A stretch of DNA of 64,000 nucleotides from an uncultured Melioribacter sp. (GTDB taxonomy: Bacteria; Bacteroidota; Ignavibacteria; Kapaibacteriales; Kapaibacteriaceae): positions 24,697 to 88,696 of the forward strand of contig CAYXKK010000004.1 in assembly GCA_964465685.1 (NCBI GenBank). Reading direction: 5' to 3'. Below, piece after piece: positions 940 through 55,962 of this stretch. The notes beneath the pieces were generated by a model. That model was not told the DNA's origin and did no database searches. It saw nothing but the letters and a program-made list of their open reading frames with translations. The stretch's first letter is position 1, and each line of letters begins with the position of its first letter. The translations under genes were made by a program, and so were the position numbers.

Positions 940-1635
940 TCAACGTGAAGAAAGTTCGAGTGCAAGGCTTGCAAACACACTTGCGCCATCGGTTGAGCCA
1001 AGCAACGGATCGCAAGCGCGTTCCGGGTGCGGCATTAAGCCCATGACGTTGCCACGTGTGTTGGTGATCCCTGCGATATTGTTGATGCTCCCGTTCGGGT
1101 TCGCATCTGCCGACAATGTACCGTCGGCTGTTGCGTAGCGGTAGAGCACCTGATTGTTTGCTTCGATTTCATCGATCACGTCGGCCGGCGCTGTAAAGCG
1201 TCCTTCGCCGTGCGCAATCGGAATACGCAAAACGCTACCTGTAGAGAGCGCGCGTGTAAATGGCGTGTTGGTGCGTTCCACGCGAAGGTATACATCCTTG
1301 CATACGAAGGACAGACCTTCATTACGGATTAATGCGCCCGGCAATAGACCCGACTCGCACAGAATTTGGAATCCGTTGCAAATGCCGAAGACAATGCCAC
1401 CATCGTTGGCAAAGGCGATCACTGACTGCATGATGGGCGAGAAGCGGGCGATGGCGCCAGTGCGCAGATAATCGCCGTACGAAAACCCACCGGGCAGAAT
1501 CACCGCGTCGAGTCCGCTCGGCAGTGATGTGTCCTTGTGCCACAAGCGCACAGCGGTGTTGCCGGTGAATGTTACCCCAAACTCCGCATCAGCATTGCAA
1601 TTCGAACCGGGAAAGGTTACAACACCGATCTTCAT
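940..1635 (-). CDS. purQ: Phosphoribosylformylglycinamidine synthase subunit PurQ (glutamine amidotransferase)
   Basis: MKIGVVTFPGSNCNADAEF...GICNGFQIL...HGEGRF...MPHPER are class-I GATase and PurQ hallmarks. Start chosen at MKIGVV, which overlaps the purS stop as ATGA. Confidence 0.9.
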   Translation of the reverse strand: MKIGVVTFPGSNCNADAEFGVTFTGNTAVRLWHKDTSLPSGLDAVILPGGFSYGDYLRTGAIARFSPIMQSVIAFANDGGIVFGICNGFQILCESGLLPGALIRNEGLSFVCKDVYLRVERTNTPFTRALSTGSVLRIPIAHGEGRFTAPADVIDEIEANNQVLYRYATADGTLSADANPNGSINNIAGITNTRGNVMGLMPHPERACDPLLGSTDGASVFASLALELSSR

Positions 1636-1904
1636 GCCGATGCTCCTGCGGCCTTCTCGGCGATGTCGATGTGTACGTCTTCCATCACAGGATTCGCAAG
1701 TAGCTTCGCACATGCTTCTTGCACAGTTGCGTGCGCTGACTCAAGATCTGGCGCTTGTACATCGAGTTCGATGTGCTTGCCGATCCGAACGTTCGTCATG
1801 CCTTGCATGTGAAGCGAGTGAAGCGCGTTTTCGACTGCCTTGCCTTGCACGTCAAGGATTGCGCGACGGAGTGATACGATGATCGATGCGGTGTAGGTCT
1901 TCAT
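1632..1904 (-). CDS. purS: Phosphoribosylformylglycinamidine synthase subunit PurS
   Basis: About 90 aa starting MKTYTASIIVSLRRAILDVQGKAVENAL, the PurS fold signature. Translationally coupled to purQ. Confidence 0.85.
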   Translation of the reverse strand: MKTYTASIIVSLRRAILDVQGKAVENALHSLHMQGMTNVRIGKHIELDVQAPDLESAHATVQEACAKLLANPVMEDVHIDIAEKAAGASA

Positions 1905-1908
1905 GCGG

Positions 1909-2670
1909 TTACATGGTAAAAGGATCTGGATCATCTTCCTCGATCGAGTCGTCACGTTCTGATCGGTCGCGCAGGAACACAACGAGGTGTCGAAGCGCGC
2001 CGCCAATCACGTACAGCATCATAAACGGGAAGAGCGCCTTGCCGCCGGTGACTACCGAAGCGACGAGAGCAACGAAAAATACGGAAAAGACGACGGGCCG
2101 CTGGCGAAGACTCTTCAGCGATGGACGCGGGATGTTGTCGTACTTGATTGTGCTTACCATTGCGAGTGCCGTCAGAACCGTTACTGCAACAGTCGCAGCA
2201 GGCTTCCACTCCGCAGGGAGCACATCCGATGGTAACCACAGAGCCAGGTAGGAGACGATCACAAACGCGCCGGCAGGGATCGGCATTCCGCGGAAGTACA
2301 GCTTGTCTTCCATGCTGGTGAGTTGCACGTTGAACCGCGCCAGACGCAGCACGCCGGCGAGAGCGGGGAGTGACGCCAGGAGAAGTCCCCACTGGTGCCA
2401 GTCGTGGAACATAGCCTGATACAGCATCGCTGATGGCGCAACGCCAAACGAAACGGCATCGCAGAGGGAGTCGAGCTCAACGCCGAACTCGGACGTACTG
2501 CGGGTAATGCGTGCGACCACGCCATCGAGCATATCGAACACTCCCGCGGTCACGATCAGCAGTGCGGCACGGTCGAGGTGTCCCTCAAAGCATGCCACGA
2601 TCGCAGCAAACCCACAAAACAGGTTCGCCAGCGTAAAGAGGTTCGGAATGACCGATCGTGTGACGCGCAT
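1909..2670 (-). CDS. pssA: CDP-diacylglycerol--serine O-phosphatidyltransferase
   Basis: CDP-alcohol phosphatidyltransferase motif DxxDGxxAR...G...D..cD (FDMLDGVVARITRSTSEFGVELDSLCD) in a multi-TM protein, immediately upstream of psd. Confidence 0.85.
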   Translation of the reverse strand: MRVTRSVIPNLFTLANLFCGFAAIVACFEGHLDRAALLIVTAGVFDMLDGVVARITRSTSEFGVELDSLCDAVSFGVAPSAMLYQAMFHDWHQWGLLLASLPALAGVLRLARFNVQLTSMEDKLYFRGMPIPAGAFVIVSYLALWLPSDVLPAEWKPAATVAVTVLTALAMVSTIKYDNIPRPSLKSLRQRPVVFSVFFVALVASVVTGGKALFPFMMLYVIGGALRHLVVFLRDRSERDDSIEEDDPDPFTM

Positions 2671-39000: not shown

Positions 39001-39393
39001 TCAGGCGATTCCGTAATACGATTTGAGTGTTTGGTAGGCCGACGTGATTTCGCGCGCCCTCGCAGTAGCTCGTGCATGTGTTTCCGCATCGGCTCGGGCA
39101 AAACGATCAGGGTGCCAAGCGGCGATTGACGTACGAAATGCCTTCTTGATGTGCTCGTGGGTGGATCCGACAGGAACATTGAGCGCGGTATGTGCTGCGA
39201 TGATGTGCTGCGGAACGTTCGGCGGAGGGGTCGGGGGAGGCGTCCGAGGGGGGGTGTCGTGAGACAACTCCTCGATGATACGCCGCAGCTCGTCATCGTC
39301 TCCAGCAAGGATGTCGTCGATCGACGGACTTCCTGAGCGCTGCGACGAAAGCTCGCTTGCGACGATGTTCTTGATGCGACTGAAAATGCCCAT
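39001..39393 (-). CDS. Small protein with a C-terminal J domain (DnaJ-like, ~130 aa)
   Basis: C-terminal HEHIKKAFRTSIAAWHPDRF...ITSAYQTLK contains the HPD motif. Start chosen at MGIFSRIKNIV, 9 nt after the upstream stop. Confidence 0.6.
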   Translation of the reverse strand: MGIFSRIKNIVASELSSQRSGSPSIDDILAGDDDELRRIIEELSHDTPPRTPPPTPPPNVPQHIIAAHTALNVPVGSTHEHIKKAFRTSIAAWHPDRFARADAETHARATARAREITSAYQTLKSYYGIA

Positions 39394-49448: not shown

Positions 49449-50420
<972 letters not shown>

Positions 50421-50424
50421 GAAG

Positions 50425-51810
50425 TTATCGCGCGACGAGAAAAACGGAGTTCGCCACCTGCGCATCTCCGGAACAGCGCGCGACGTAGGTGCCGGGCGGC
50501 AGCGAAGAAACATCGATAGGCACCGAATCCAGGGTTGTGCCTACCGTGATGACGGAGCGACCAAGAATATCTACGATCTCAATGGTCACCGCTATGGCAG
50601 AGAGTCCGTGGCGGATGGTCACGTTACTCGCAGCTGGCTGGGGATGGATTTCGAGATCGTGTGGTAGTTGGCAGTCTGCTACAGAAGTGATTGAGCACGG
50701 ATCGCTCATCCGTATCGGTGAGAGCACGGCATCGCGTTTGGAAATCCCAAGCATCAAATTGTCCAGATTTTGGCCCCACGTCCACCACTGCCCCGTAGAG
50801 TCGACGGCAAAACACGACATTCGTGAGGAGAAAATTTCACGTATCGGCGGCAGACTCGCTACTCGCTGCGGCGTGAACGATGCGAGGAACGATGGTAACC
50901 CAAGCTGACCATATGAGTTGCTGCCCCAGGTCCACACTGAACCATCGGCCCGCAGTGCAATGCTATGATACCTTCCGCCTTTGGCATCAACCACATCTGT
51001 AAGATCCAATCGATATGGTGTTGAACGGTTCGCTCGAGTTCCGTCACCGACCTGACCGCCTTCATTCGTTCCCCAGGTGTACAACGTCCCTGATGAATCG
51101 ATGGCGTAGCAGGGTCCAAGGTCGCCGTGTGATTCACTCGAACGCACCATGCGTATGCGCGATAATCCCTCGATTTGTCCGATTGGAACACGAAGCGAAT
51201 CAGGATTCCTCGCCGATGCACCACCACTGTTGTTACCCCATGACCAGACCGTCCCATCCACCAGCAGTGCGAGAGCACTGCCACCACTGCCGGAAATGGA
51301 GTGAACCTTCTTGGGGAGAAGTAGCTTCTTGGGACGGTACACTGGCGTCGTCTGGTCGCTGCCAAAGAGTATCGATAGGAAGGAAGAATTGTAACAGGTC
51401 GCATACACTTCACCGTCGTAGGTCAGATACATTGCAAACTGCGACGGCTCTCCAGCAACCATCTTCACCGGTTTATCGAAAGGTATCCGACGGAATACGA
51501 AACTGTTGCGACTTATATCTTCGAGTGTATCGCCGACGAGTCGCTCGGCAAGCGGTGAACCATAGACGGCGCCGCTTTGTGTCAGAGCGAAAATTGCACT
51601 ACTGAAGTACAGCGAAGTGATGCGCTCGTTAGACGGAACACTGTCGATGTTGAGATACGATGGACCCCATGGATGAATCTTCGTGCTGTCGCATGATACC
51701 CATCCCTCGAAGCGGCCAATCGCTGGTCTGATCTGTGAATGGGCTACCTGGCAGAGCATCAACATGGCCGCCACGAACAGGCCAAACGAGTAGGTCGGGT
51801 TCGTTCTCAT
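50425..51810 (-). CDS. Secreted RCC1-repeat beta-propeller protein with a T9SS C-terminal sorting domain
   Basis: Signal peptide. RCC1 signatures (WGSNSYGQLG, WGTNEGGQVGDG, WSWGNNSGG). C-terminal ...LPPGTYVARCSGDAQVANSVFLVAR Por-tail. Confidence 0.75.
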   Translation of the reverse strand: MRTNPTYSFGLFVAAMLMLCQVAHSQIRPAIGRFEGWVSCDSTKIHPWGPSYLNIDSVPSNERITSLYFSSAIFALTQSGAVYGSPLAERLVGDTLEDISRNSFVFRRIPFDKPVKMVAGEPSQFAMYLTYDGEVYATCYNSSFLSILFGSDQTTPVYRPKKLLLPKKVHSISGSGGSALALLVDGTVWSWGNNSGGASARNPDSLRVPIGQIEGLSRIRMVRSSESHGDLGPCYAIDSSGTLYTWGTNEGGQVGDGTRANRSTPYRLDLTDVVDAKGGRYHSIALRADGSVWTWGSNSYGQLGLPSFLASFTPQRVASLPPIREIFSSRMSCFAVDSTGQWWTWGQNLDNLMLGISKRDAVLSPIRMSDPCSITSVADCQLPHDLEIHPQPAASNVTIRHGLSAIAVTIEIVDILGRSVITVGTTLDSVPIDVSSLPPGTYVARCSGDAQVANSVFLVAR

Positions 51811-54251
51811 TCGTTTGTCTCCATTCTCGAGCAGTCAGGTACCGTCACCTTCTTCGTGCAGATGACCGTCCCGTTAGGATCCCGCAGGTTGATGGTAAAT
51901 GTCTCGCCTTTGCGATACGTTCGACATAGAGGCGCAGACTCAAAAATGCCCGATCCAAGGTTCATAGACTTTACCGGGATGCCGCCCGGACCGATTACTT
52001 CGGCAGCAACAGTTCTATTCCTCGACGTGCAATTACGCAGTTGAATTCGTACAAACCTACAGCAATCGTCGGGCAACGATACTCCTCGTCCAATCGGCGG
52101 TTTCTCGAGAGTTACGATGACGTCATCACAGGTAACATTGCCTCGACATGTTTGTGCAAGTTCGGCGTTTACGTCTACCGATACAGAACATGCAACTCCA
52201 CCGACTGTAATGTTGGCAGAGGCAACGAGCGACTTTGGATTAAAGGCGAAACACGTTGGGATGCATAGTCGGCCGATCACGTGCTTATTGTTTCCGTTAG
52301 CTGAGCCAGCACGTGGCACGAGCGTTACTGACGAGTTGCCTTTTACCAATAGCCAATCGCTACTTACGGTTGACAACGTGATGTTCTCATCTGTGAGAAT
52401 CCTTATCCCGGTGAGATTGAACGGGCAACTGGTGGTTGCGGCTACGCTCACGTCGAAACAACACGTACCAAGGGCGTCTTCAAACAGCAACTCCAGTTTC
52501 GGAGACCGCGTACTGCAATCGCAATCACATCTAAGCTTGACATTCTTCCAGCACAGAATGCTACCATCAAGGCCTCGGAAGACAATTGTCGTAGAGTCAG
52601 TCAGCGCTGAAACATTTGTTTTTTCGATGCAGAATGAATAGAGGAATCCGGAATGCTTGGGGTCGACTGGCATTTCGGGCTTGTAGGTCTCGGTGATTCT
52701 ATCCTTGTCGAGGAATGTCAGACTTGAGTAGATGTCTATTGAGCCAATGGTGCAGCCTGATTTGAGCTTCGATGCATCCACATACACGTTGAAGCAGCAC
52801 TTGTCCGACCTCTCAGTGTTCGGTTCAACACGCACGCTTTTCGCAAAATCATCGCAGTTGCACTTGTCTGTGCAGCCACGGTAGGAAATGCGCTTCTCGC
52901 AGAATGCCTTACCATCCTTTCCCTTTGCAATGACGACTAGCTCTCTGGATTCCTTCTGATCGAGAGCTGGCAGGCATATAGTGCCTAGGTCATACCACTG
53001 ATAATCGCCAACAACCGGCTGTTTGGTAGGATTGCTCGTGCTGGCATCTTTTGACTCCCATCTGAATGCCCGATCACCGATCTGCGATCCCTCGAATGCG
53101 TGAATATCCATGCCATAGATTGTGCAGGCAAGCGATCGCGCGTCGATAACGTCGCCCCCACCGTTAATGAGTCTCACTCGAAAGCAGCATTTCGCGGGAT
53201 CCTGCGATAAAGCTGGGATGAGCTCGACTTGGAAGCTGCCGTTGCACACGCATTCAACTACTTCCGTAAGGCGTACATCGTCGATGTAATAGTAGGCAAA
53301 CTGTCGTGAGGTGGGATTGCTGAAGTAGTTCTGGCAAACAGGCGGAAGAGGCTGATTAACGTCCACACTGGGCCGTTCCTCGAAGTTTCCGATCGTCAGA
53401 TATCTCTCTCCACCGTTAGCGATGAAATCATGCTGCACGAGGGTCCATCCGTTTTTTCGGTCGATCTTTCCTGCACTAGCTAGCTTCAGTCCGGGGTCCC
53501 CTATTGTGTAGGGAATCCCGACACGCGCATTCGGTCCATCGTTGTCATCAATGTCGTAACAGGCGTCCCGGTATGAGTTTTGCGGGATTGTAAGGTATGG
53601 ATTCGGGGAAACTCTCGCTTCCAGACCGATAGCGTGGGTGCTCACCTCCGACAGCGATGCGTAATAGCTAAGAGTGTACTTCCCGTCCTTCTTTAGCGGA
53701 ACTAGCAGTTCCACTTCGAGGTATTCACGCCAGAGCTCATTTGCAGGATCAGCTACCCGATCAAACGGTACGATGTTGGATCCGGCATCAATTCCATTCA
53801 ACCGGTAATACAATCCAGCGTACCGCGTGTTTGCAGCATCCGCTAGCGTACGTGTTGGTTCATAACCGAACCAGTTCTCAGGGATGCCTACATACGACCC
53901 ACCTCCTACGCCAGGAATGCACGGCTCCTGTTCGGTTGTAAACAGATCTGCGCTGGAACATGAAATCGGATCGTAAAATGTTCCGGCGGGGATGTATGGT
54001 ACCCGATCTTGATCATACGGGATGATAAACGGAGGGGCTGTGCTGTTTTCCAGCATGTACCGATGAAACTGCCTCCACCATCGGCTCGCAAAGAGATATC
54101 TGGTGCCCCAGACAGGCCACGTTGGATTTCTCTGATGATCAATCGTGATTTGTTCGAAGGACCCATTGGGAACGTAATCTCGCACACCCGTTATTGGTTG
54201 AGCCAAGGACACATGGCAATCTGAGAGCAAAACTCCCAGAATCAGCAGCAC
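51807..54251 (-). CDS. Large secreted Cys-rich protein (814 aa) with about four internal repeats marked by CCF-x-V motifs; unknown function
   Basis: Hydrophobic N-terminus. 40+ cysteines. Recurring K-CCFRVRL / KCCFNVYV / GTCCFDVSV / DCCRFVRI elements about 100 aa apart. GTG start. ~50% GC. A 4-nt overlap with the downstream RCC1 gene. Confidence 0.55.
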   Translation of the reverse strand: MLLILGVLLSDCHVSLAQPITGVRDYVPNGSFEQITIDHQRNPTWPVWGTRYLFASRWWRQFHRYMLENSTAPPFIIPYDQDRVPYIPAGTFYDPISCSSADLFTTEQEPCIPGVGGGSYVGIPENWFGYEPTRTLADAANTRYAGLYYRLNGIDAGSNIVPFDRVADPANELWREYLEVELLVPLKKDGKYTLSYYASLSEVSTHAIGLEARVSPNPYLTIPQNSYRDACYDIDDNDGPNARVGIPYTIGDPGLKLASAGKIDRKNGWTLVQHDFIANGGERYLTIGNFEERPSVDVNQPLPPVCQNYFSNPTSRQFAYYYIDDVRLTEVVECVCNGSFQVELIPALSQDPAKCCFRVRLINGGGDVIDARSLACTIYGMDIHAFEGSQIGDRAFRWESKDASTSNPTKQPVVGDYQWYDLGTICLPALDQKESRELVVIAKGKDGKAFCEKRISYRGCTDKCNCDDFAKSVRVEPNTERSDKCCFNVYVDASKLKSGCTIGSIDIYSSLTFLDKDRITETYKPEMPVDPKHSGFLYSFCIEKTNVSALTDSTTIVFRGLDGSILCWKNVKLRCDCDCSTRSPKLELLFEDALGTCCFDVSVAATTSCPFNLTGIRILTDENITLSTVSSDWLLVKGNSSVTLVPRAGSANGNNKHVIGRLCIPTCFAFNPKSLVASANITVGGVACSVSVDVNAELAQTCRGNVTCDDVIVTLEKPPIGRGVSLPDDCCRFVRIQLRNCTSRNRTVAAEVIGPGGIPVKSMNLGSGIFESAPLCRTYRKGETFTINLRDPNGTVICTKKVTVPDCSRMETNE

Positions 54252-54283
54252 GACACTTAGCGATCTAAGCTGCGGGAAGTTGC

Positions 54284-54295
54284 GGGGGGGGGGGG
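54284..54295. repeat. Homopolymeric G12 tract (C12 on the coding strand), 33 nt upstream of the start of the Cys-rich protein gene
   Basis: Read directly: tgc-gggggggggggg-catat. Confidence 0.95.
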
Positions 54296-54468
54296 CATAT
54301 ACGACTCCGGAATTCTATGAACTACTTTTACTACATCTTGTTCGTAGAACATACATCCACGCAATCAAAGCTGCAAGGACAATCTGCGGTATGACAGTAG
54401 TTGTCATACACGCGATTCGTGAAGTGTCTGTACTGTGTGATTATGCGATTACAGAAAATGATGCACAT

Positions 54469-54594
54469 GGGTCGCTTCACTCCAAGCATCGACGACGTCA
54501 ACGCTGTTGCGCTCAGCGTGCTTCGCCACCGCCTCGTCACGAACTTCAGTGCCGAAGCCGAAGGCGTGAGCGTCGATACAATTATCCGCGAGCT
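54469..54594 (+). pseudogene. Right copy of the 126-bp direct repeat: an orphan fragment duplicating the last ~42 codons of moxR
   Basis: Encodes GRFTPSIDDVNAVALSVLRHRLVTNFSAEAEGVSVDTIIREL with no upstream moxR body. One mismatch to the copy in the intact gene. Confidence 0.85.
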
Positions 54595-54651
54595 CACAGG
54601 GCAGAAGTGATGCGCCCCTGCTGTGGCGCCAAATAGCCGTACCTTTGTGGC

Positions 54652-55962
54652 ATGGGTCTCGTAGCAATCGTTGGCCGACCGAACGTCGGCAAGTCCACGC
54701 TGTTTAATCGCATCATCGAAGAACGCCATGCCATTGTGGAAGGTGTTCCGGGTGTTACGCGTGATCGTCTGTACGCCAAGGGCGAGTGGGCAGGCATTGT
54801 ATTCCAGCTCGTCGATACGGGTGGTATCGTGCCTGATAGCGATGATGTGTTCGAAAGCGCGATTCGAGAGCAGGCGATGCTTGCGATCGATGAAGCGGAT
54901 GTGATCCTCTTCGTTGTGGATGGCCGTGACGGTCTGACGCCGATTGATAGCGAGATTGGTGGCATGCTTCGCAGCTCCAAGAAGCCGGTTGTGTTGGTTG
55001 TCAACAAGTGCGACAACGCATCGGGTGATCTCAATGCGTCGGAATTCTATGCACTGGGTCTTGGCGATCCGTTTGCGATCTCTGCATTGAATGGTCGCAG
55101 CACGGGCGACTTCCTGGATCTTGTTGTGTCGCACCTGCGTGACGACGAACAGATGGAAGACTCGCGACTGAAGATTGCGATCGTTGGTCGTCCGAACGTG
55201 GGTAAGAGCTCGCTGACAAATGCATTGCTTGGCAAGGACCGCATGGTGGTAACGCCGATTGCGGGCACGACACGCGATGCGATCGACAGCGTGCTGACGT
55301 ATTACGGAGAAGAGATCGTCCTTATCGATACAGCAGGTCTACGTCGCCGGAGTCAAATCAAGGAGAGCATTGAGCTCTTCAGCACGATGCGCACATCGCG
55401 CGCGATTGATCGATGCGATGTAGCGGTGGTGGTGGTCGATGCAGTGCAAGGCCTCGAAGCGCAAGACAAGCGCGTGATCTCCGAAGTTGTTGCAGCCCGC
55501 AAGGGTATCATTATCGCGCTCAATAAGTGGGATCTGATCGAGAAAGACACGAAGACGGCCGACGCGTTCATCCAGAAGATCTATGATGAGCTGCCGACAC
55601 TCGACTACGTGCCGATCCTCACGATTTCCGCGATCACGAAGCAGCGCATCACGAAGCTCATCGAAATGTCGAAGAAGATTCAAGAACGTCGTTGTGTGCG
55701 CATCCCAACGCACGAGCTCAATGAGGAGCTGATTGCGATGCTCGAGCGTACGCCCCCTCCAAGTGTGAAGGCGCGCGACTTGCGCATCAACTACGTAACG
55801 CAGGTAAAGACTGAACCACCATTGTTTGCGTTCTTCTTGAACTTCCCTGAGCTGCTCCCGGAAGCCTACAAGCGCTTCATTGAACGTCAGCTGCGTAAGC
55901 TGCACGACTTCGAGGGCGTGCCGATCAGCTTTGTATTCCGGAAGAAGAACAACCGCGATTAA
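54652..55962 (+). CDS. der: Ribosome-biogenesis GTPase Der (EngA), two tandem GTPase domains plus KH-like domain
   Basis: GRPNVGKST (G1) occurs twice, with DTGG/DTAG (G3) and NKCD/NKWD (G4). Confidence 0.95.
   Translation: MGLVAIVGRPNVGKSTLFNRIIEERHAIVEGVPGVTRDRLYAKGEWAGIVFQLVDTGGIVPDSDDVFESAIREQAMLAIDEADVILFVVDGRDGLTPIDSEIGGMLRSSKKPVVLVVNKCDNASGDLNASEFYALGLGDPFAISALNGRSTGDFLDLVVSHLRDDEQMEDSRLKIAIVGRPNVGKSSLTNALLGKDRMVVTPIAGTTRDAIDSVLTYYGEEIVLIDTAGLRRRSQIKESIELFSTMRTSRAIDRCDVAVVVVDAVQGLEAQDKRVISEVVAARKGIIIALNKWDLIEKDTKTADAFIQKIYDELPTLDYVPILTISAITKQRITKLIEMSKKIQERRCVRIPTHELNEELIAMLERTPPPSVKARDLRINYVTQVKTEPPLFAFFLNFPELLPEAYKRFIERQLRKLHDFEGVPISFVFRKKNNRD

Follow-up and report, generated by a model that had tools for sequence, protein, structure and literature searches.

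A two-gene cassette between moxR and der

The 64,000-nt stretch of DNA analysed here (hereafter the window) harbours a cassette insert of 4,061 bp (50408-54468) that separates der/engA from a gene for a moxR-like AAA ATPase. Copies of a 126-nt stretch from the 3' end of moxR lie on both sides of it, as direct repeats that differ by a single mismatch (99% identical). Its main features, together with the flanking repeats, are the following.

50282-50407, plus strand: left 126-nt repeat, the 3' end of the moxR-like gene, fused to a four-codon tail supplied by the insert (…ELLKS, then stop)
50425-51810, minus strand: second cassette gene, encoding an RCC1-repeat beta-propeller protein with a T9SS C-terminal sorting domain (domain search)
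51807-54251, minus strand: body of the Cys-rich secreted protein gene, an 814-aa open reading frame from GTG (as listed among the ORFs)
54389-54409, no strand assigned: perfect palindrome GTATGACA-N5-TGTCATAC, about 95 nt upstream of the homopolymeric tract described below
54469-54594, plus strand: right 126-nt repeat, leading into the original tail of moxR (…ELTGQK, stop codon at 54610), with der/engA next, at 54652

The MoxR C-terminus now reads ...IIRELLKS before its stop, vs ...IIRELTGQK in relatives with an empty site and in the leftover copy (50408-50420 vs 54595-54610). Among the homologous DNA retrieved from NCBI, ENA, JGI and Logan assemblies, two loci 92-93% identical to the window (L001, L002) represented this empty site, with moxR directly followed by der, and the MAG CAYSMF01 (L008) displayed the same occupied moxR-cassette-der layout as the window, including both repeat copies. 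The layout of L008 and the empty sites of L001 and L002 rule out a chimeric insertion. A different arrangement was observed in L027, where der, an extra gene for a 601-aa T9SS protein, the cassette and moxR succeed one another with no duplication. The existence of empty, occupied and differently filled sites indicates that the moxR-der junction is a variable hotspot. The GC content of the cassette is 49-54%, vs 55-59% in the flanks. No integrase or transposase was found in the insertion, and the insert may, among other possibilities, have arisen through Campbell-type recombination of a circular molecule that contained the 126 nt.

The 814-aa protein matched no Pfam or NCBIfam family, and 34 cysteine columns are invariant across its homologues. 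It is predicted to form a string of beta-sandwich domains (AlphaFold model with a pLDDT of 70.7), and Foldseek comparison with the PDB returned only generic tandem beta-sandwich matches at TM 0.1-0.2, including complement MG domains, the Sap S-layer protein and the SiiE adhesin. The ATG of the second gene overlaps the stop codon of the first (ATGA), so that the two genes are probably translationally coupled. The pair is kept as a cassette in L003, L004, L005, L007, L027 and L032. Kapaibacterium is placed in Bacteroidota.

The C12 tract and the reading frame that crosses it

Upstream of the Cys-rich gene lies a run of twelve G on the plus strand, i.e. C12 on the coding (minus) strand, at positions 54284-54295 of the window. 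The presence of this 12-nt poly-G/C tract had been correctly recognised in the original prediction, as had its distance to the GTG at 54251, to within 1 nt (32 nt instead of 33). Its placement at the inner edge of the insertion holds only loosely, the tract lying inside the insert and 173 nt away from the right boundary. An insertion scar or junction was ruled out, given this distance and the occurrence of the tract in unrelated contexts in L004, L006 and L007. The features surrounding the tract are listed below.

54201-54283, minus strand: rest of the signal-peptide coding sequence, (R)NFPQLRSLSVVLLILGVLLSDCHVSLA, in the gene's frame, with a predicted signal peptidase I site between A and Q
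54257-54298, minus strand: short OFF-state reading frame MPPPPATSRSLDR (translations at tract lengths 8-16)
54284-54295, minus strand: C12 hypermutable tract, proposed Pro codons 2-5 (sequence, uniqueness, chance expectation, homologous cassettes)
54296-54298, minus strand: proposed native start ATG, abutting the 5' end of the tract, in frame at C10/C13/C16 and out of frame at C12
54305-54308, minus strand: GGAG, possible Shine-Dalgarno element, 6 nt upstream of the ATG

No other homopolymer among the 64,000 bases of the window exceeds 7 nt, the runner-up being a G7 at 39248, and no other G/C run reaches 8. The number of G/C runs of at least 12 expected in the window was ~0.02 from base composition and ~3e-4 from a first-order Markov model, which places the tract far beyond chance. 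Over ~206 kb of related loci, the runs of at least 8 were the homologous tracts and one run in L020, with no others. With its twelve cytosines, the tract also exceeds the ~7-8 residues from which G/C homopolymers are regarded as slippable repeats.

Read on the minus strand, the region is ordered ...GGAGTCGTAT-ATG-C12-GCAACTTCCCGCAGCTTAGATCGCTAAGTGTC-GTG-CTGCTG..., and the last C of the tract is the first base of an Arg codon (CGC) in the gene's frame. Translated from the ATG at 54298-54296 with C12, it yields MPPPPATSRSLDR, 13 codons ended by a TAA at 54259-54257, only 5 nt ahead of the GTG at 54251. With C13 or C10, the same ATG gives MPPPPRNFPQLRSLSVVLLILGVLLSDCHVSLA followed by Q, so that the 814-codon Cys-rich ORF acquires a proper signal peptide. 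All three lengths C10, C13 and C16 produce MPPP(P)RNFPQLRSLSVVLLILGVLLSDCHVSLAQ..., open to the end of the gene, and the resulting product, MPPP(P)RNFPQLRSLSVVLLILGVLLSDCHVSLAQPITG..., spans 829-831 aa; every other length tested between C8 and C16 runs into a stop within 9-14 codons. The window allele has the OFF frame, from which the gain of one C or the loss of two would restore ON, and its C12 could be a miscalled C13.

The properties of the leader are consistent with initiation upstream of the tract. The repaired leader, starting from the ATG, displays two Arg in its n-region, VVLLILGVLL as best hydrophobic window and an SLA-Q junction, and its hydrophobic core is stronger than that of the leader started from GTG, MLLILGVLLSDCHVSLAQ, which has no n-region and no K or R. 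More distant homologues, which are devoid of the tract, carry ordinary leaders with K/R near the N-terminus (e.g. MKFLLLTTAALLSLLVDIKAQ and MRTIFNVVTLLVIGIVPLSAQ). The AQ junction is common to all homologues and presumably fits the substrates of signal peptidase I in Bacteroidota. The GTG at 54251, on which the original prediction had anchored the gene while missing the ATG that abuts the tract, is thus probably not the native start, its leader having no charged n-region.

We infer from these features that the ATG at 54298-54296 is the start actually used, which would place the repeat downstream of the start codon. The GGAG element preceding it was also detected in orthologous alleles (L003, L008, L025 and L027); few genes of this genome have a Shine-Dalgarno-like motif (8 of 46, vs a background of 8%), so that it argues weakly for this ATG. 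An upstream ATG at 54352 shares the frame of the ATG at 54298 and could serve as an alternative start, the tract being coding either way. More generally, a homopolymer seemingly located upstream of an ORF can represent codon 2 onward of a gene that is out of frame.

Length variation among alleles and paralogues

We compared orthologous cassettes sharing 96-100% nucleotide identity, in which the following tract lengths and frames were observed.

Allele A (ATG-Cn-AGTAAC), L003: C7, OFF
Allele A, L008/L029, L030 and L031: C8, OFF
Allele A, L025 and L026: C9, ON; protein P0023 starts MPPPSNLPWLK
Allele B (ATG-Cn-GCAAC, the window type), L027/L028: C7, ON, ...MPPRNFPQLRSL...; protein P0025 reads ...SYMPPRNFPQLRSLSVV
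Allele B, window: C12, OFF
Allele C, L032: ATG-C9-TCT-C9-GCAAC, OFF

The cassettes of L003, L008, L025 and L026 are 99.85-100% identical over 3.2-4.1 kb, and the tract is their sole indel in the multiple alignment. For instance, L026 and L008 show 0 mismatches in 3176 nt, yet carry C9 and C8, respectively. Across seven aligned cassettes, only one other indel was found besides the tract, a single base in the upstream non-coding part. Near-identical alleles are therefore polymorphic in tract length (C7/C8/C9 for allele A, C7/C12 for allele B). Some of the samples may share a study, so that independent observations are fewer than contigs. This between-sample comparison bears out the part of the original prediction that proposed a slipped-strand switch of the secreted-protein operon, whereas the promoter-spacing mechanism attached to it was not supported.

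Both states occur naturally with intact ORF bodies: the alleles of L025/L026 (C9), L027/L028 (C7), L004 (C10) and L006 are ON, and those of the window (C12), L003 (C7), L008 (C8), L007 (C17) and L032 are OFF. In L025/L026 and in L027/L028, the tract-adjacent ATG heads the protein in frame, the called proteins P0023 and P0025 starting at this ATG or reading through it. The proportion of ON states, ~4 of 9 distinct alleles, does not differ from the 1/3 expected if the frame were irrelevant.

Allele A has peculiarities of its own. A second ATG lies 29 nt upstream of the tract-adjacent one and in another frame (L003 174-206; L008 5967-5999), and is missing from the window allele. In allele A, this second ATG is in frame at C7 and the adjacent ATG at C9, neither being in frame at C8. 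Judging from these frames, the two starts could generate three expression states. Downstream of the tract, allele A also carries a TTG in the gene's frame, where the window allele has TTC, and this codon might sustain a low, tract-independent expression.

A poly-C run was also found at the same place in paralogues at 46-57% amino-acid identity, and in one at 36%.

L004/L005/L012: ATGGCTATGCTA-C10-GCAAT, in frame, reading MAMLPPPRNARLLQRLRLLLLLL
L006/L009: ATGGTAGTTGTTA-C10-TT-C7-GCAAA, in frame
L007/L010: TTGACTGTGT-C17-GGCAAAAC, out of frame
L011: contig starting with C19 (at least C19), then GCAAT
L014 (36% identity): C8

In 6 of 7 cases, 110-113 nt separate the end of the tract from the conserved VPNGSFE motif, and every paralogue for which the 5' flank is available has a start codon 0-24 nt ahead of the tract. 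In four paralogues, the frame of the gene stays open across the tract, as (P)n-R-(Q)-N-F/A. In-frame variants read ATG-(Pro)n-R-N-F/A and then enter the hydrophobic core of the signal peptide, as illustrated by L004 (ATGGCTATGCTA-C10), which reads MAMLPPPRNARLLQRLR.... In L007, no in-frame start was found between the tract and the hydrophobic core, and the called protein begins with MLHDVALAQQ, inside the leader; a signal peptide is then possible only by initiating upstream of the tract. The more distant homologues without a tract share 31-37% identity. In addition, CCC is the least used Pro codon of the window's genes (15%), and pure CCC runs nevertheless occur in every paralogue. This exclusive use of the rarest Pro codon indicates that the homopolymer itself is conserved, rather than a poly-Pro peptide.

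The tract recurs at an identical place in the gene in over 10 independent assemblies, which rules out an assembly artefact or a poly-G artefact of two-colour chemistry. Two alleles have interrupted tracts, C10-TT-C7 (L006 9864-9882) and C9-TCT-C9 (L032 10-30), which may be stabilised or split forms of longer runs. Several contigs start at a long tract, no more than a few dozen bases from one, or inside the gene (L011 1-19, L032 1-30, L010/L007 1-82, and L013). This suggests that short-read assemblies are interrupted at long tracts, owing to heterogeneity or low coverage; the tract would explain the contig breaks at this spot.

A proposed reading-frame switch, its alternatives and known systems

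The start codons upstream of the tract, the open frame, the in-frame Pro-R-N-F/A variants, the lack of a -35/-10 pair and the range of lengths together argue for a reading-frame switch in codons 2-5. We consider it likely that C12 is a coding-region phase-variation (contingency) tract, acting as a translational slipped-strand on/off switch and not as a promoter element. Translation of the Cys-rich secreted protein would start at the ATG at 54298-54296, and the tract would encode codons 2-5, a poly-Pro stretch in the n-region of its Sec signal peptide. During replication, C residues would be gained or lost through slipped-strand mispairing. At lengths of 10, 13 or 16, the ATG would be in frame with the 814-codon body and the protein would be made, exported and cut at SLA-Q, whereas at other lengths, including the assembled C12, translation would end early (after 13 codons for C12). 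Given the ATGA overlap, the switch would probably also lower expression of the downstream RCC1/T9SS gene through a polar effect. Switching would be frequent and reversible within a population, and would alter the cell surface. With a slippable repeat located downstream of a putative start codon, lengths that differ among near-identical alleles, and natural ON and OFF states with intact ORF bodies, the locus has the sequence-level attributes of translational phase variation mediated by simple sequence repeats, and would as such qualify as a contingency locus.

A transcriptional switch, in which the gene would start at the GTG at 54251 and the tract, located in the promoter or 5' leader, would tune spacing or leader function, appears unlikely. 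It draws on the position of the tract, which precedes by 32 nt the first in-frame start of the ORF as listed, and it predicts length polymorphism equally well. Furthermore, promoter-type tracts may exist in this group, since a C16 run of L020 lies between TTGACT and TAAATT hexamers. In the window, however, a sigma-70-type promoter scan of both strands over 54150-54700 revealed no -35/-10-like pair, bearing in mind that Bacteroidota promoters differ from this type, and the original claim that the tract occupies a promoter position and changes promoter spacing found no support: no such elements flank it, its lengths extend from 7 to at least 19, and it is probably coding. In the class of promoter-spacer tracts, the repeat lies between -35 and -10 elements with clustered lengths, and the start codon and full signal peptide lie downstream of it. 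Neither arrangement was found here, the hexamers considered being of the sigma-70 type only. A spacer of 17 ± 1 is incompatible with this range, which is seen at one and the same position relative to the gene. Added to this are the leader from GTG without a charged n-region, the lack in L007 of a start downstream of the tract that would yield a signal peptide, the frame open through the tract with R-N-F/A kept after it in four paralogues, and the ATG that abuts the tract.

The same region (54150-54700) contained no terminator in our scan, and its leader matched no known RNA element in Rfam at E up to 1. The Bacteroidota-type -7 motif (TAnnTTTG), looked for by eye, is absent from the window and was seen only in L006 (TATGTTTG), ~70 nt upstream of the L006 tract. 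The palindrome at 54389-54409 is unique in the window, and among the loci compared for it its exact copies occurred only upstream of homologous cassettes; it is exact upstream of L003, L006, L008, L025 and L026, and has one mismatch in L004 and in L027. The palindrome may act as an operator in the promoter region of the cassette, bound by a dimeric regulator, and its position suggests that the regulatory region and promoter are located further upstream and that the tract is transcribed.

The C16 run of L020, a distant relative (2208-2223, minus strand), is located 69 nt upstream of a different and small Cys-rich secreted ORF (1477-2139, minus strand, 220 aa). It looks like a tract of the promoter-spacer type, with a spacing between its hexamers, 25 nt, that is far from optimal.

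Slightly less probable still is a mutational hotspot without any switching role, i.e. a tolerated poly-Pro stretch in recently inactivated OFF copies, or sequencing and assembly noise. OFF alleles are indeed common (window, L003, L008, L007, L032), but they are otherwise undamaged, the 814-codon body being intact and 96% identical between alleles, and a merely tolerated stretch fits poorly with a tract that persists across paralogues at 46-57% identity through exclusive use of the rarest Pro codon. As for noise, contigs often break at or near long tracts that are hard to assemble (L011, L010, L032), and C12 is not easily told apart from C13; against this, C7, C8 and C9 each recur in more than one sample and are short enough for reliable calls in short-read assemblies. 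Lastly, recoding, by which slippage of RNA polymerase or a -1 slip of tRNA-Pro on the ribosome would restore the frame in part of the transcripts or ribosomes, expression then depending on slippage efficiency and not on any heritable ON/OFF state, is very improbable: a -1 shift anywhere in the C run does turn the ATG frame into the gene frame, all-C codons permit perfect re-pairing and CCC-C sites are shift-prone, but the length differences between near-identical alleles exist at the DNA level, in-frame DNA alleles occur, transcriptional slippage is best documented for A/T runs, and recoding would account for a leaky OFF state at most. Under the preferred reading-frame switch, the OFF state may accordingly be leaky via a -1 slip on the C run.

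Among known systems, the closest analogue of the proposed switch would be the poly-G run of pilC in Neisseria gonorrhoeae and N. meningitidis, the leader repeats of opa being also close. In pilC, the poly-G belongs to the sequence that codes for the signal peptide (Jonsson et al. 1991, as cited in PMC2193922 and PMC5953494); these signal-peptide poly-G/C runs switch at 1e-2 to 1e-4 (PMC2193922; PMC5953494), and pilC is entered as a genic tract of G9-20 (PMC5953494). Both cases share a G/C homopolymer in the part of the gene coding for the signal peptide of an exported, surface-associated protein, with length changes shifting the frame between ON and OFF, pilC lengths of ~9-20 that differ between strains, and several paralogues per genome with their own tracts. 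They differ in the protein, which is here unrelated (a Cys-rich beta-sandwich protein with an RCC1/T9SS partner), in the position of the tract, which here begins at codon 2 directly after the ATG, and in the host, an uncultured member of the Kapaibacteriaceae (Bacteroidota) represented by metagenomes only, and not a host-restricted pathogen. The opa genes likewise have a translational switch in the signal sequence, where repeat changes spare the mature protein, and form a multi-copy family with independent switches; their repeats are CTCTT/CTTCT pentamers in the leader-peptide coding region, whereas the present repeat is a homopolymer, in another protein and taxon.

Slipped-strand length variation upstream of the body of a surface-protein gene is also documented for Neisseria opc (poly-C) and porA (poly-G) and for Bordetella fim (poly-C) (PMC3960869, PMC2193922). 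In these genes, the tract is located between -35 and -10 and modulates transcription, whereas the tract described here has no flanking hexamers, ranges in length between 7 and at least 19, follows a start codon and forms Pro codons. In Campylobacter jejuni and Helicobacter pylori, intragenic G/C runs of ~8-13 are found in surface-structure genes and are length-polymorphic between near-identical genomes. Those tracts are scattered over the ORFs of many unrelated genes, whereas the present ones are position-fixed in one cassette family. Our literature search returned no paper combining 'phase variation' and 'Ignavibacteria'.

Most descriptions of repeat-driven phase variation concern host-adapted pathogens. 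The comparative signature of a contingency locus reported here, which combines a position-fixed homopolymer, a polymorphism restricted to length and both ON and OFF alleles, comes from uncultured Bacteroidota (Kapaibacteriaceae) and from an unannotated protein family, and predicts population-level heterogeneity of a T9SS-linked surface structure. We tentatively extend this reading, as a possibility that falls somewhat short of probable, to a whole clade of two-gene surface cassettes of uncultured Kapaibacteriaceae, present in up to three copies per genome, inserted in variable hotspots such as the moxR-der junction, preceded in several cases by a conserved palindromic operator and sharing a conserved switch made of a start codon and a poly-C run. 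If true, these cassettes would constitute a dedicated multi-locus repertoire of phase-variable surface proteins (a 'phasome') in an organism that is not a pathogen and has no known association with a host. This repertoire may help its bearers to evade phages or predators.

The switch would also explain the truncated public annotations of these genes. Public gene calls of OFF-state alleles (P0020, P0022, P0024 (749 aa), P0002 and P0003) begin either at an internal Met (M82 of the repaired protein) or within the signal peptide, and the deposited proteins of OFF alleles are thus devoid of their leader. From M82 on, P0024 and the window's protein are identical, and one 90% protein cluster spans lengths of 749, 829, 838 and 846 aa.
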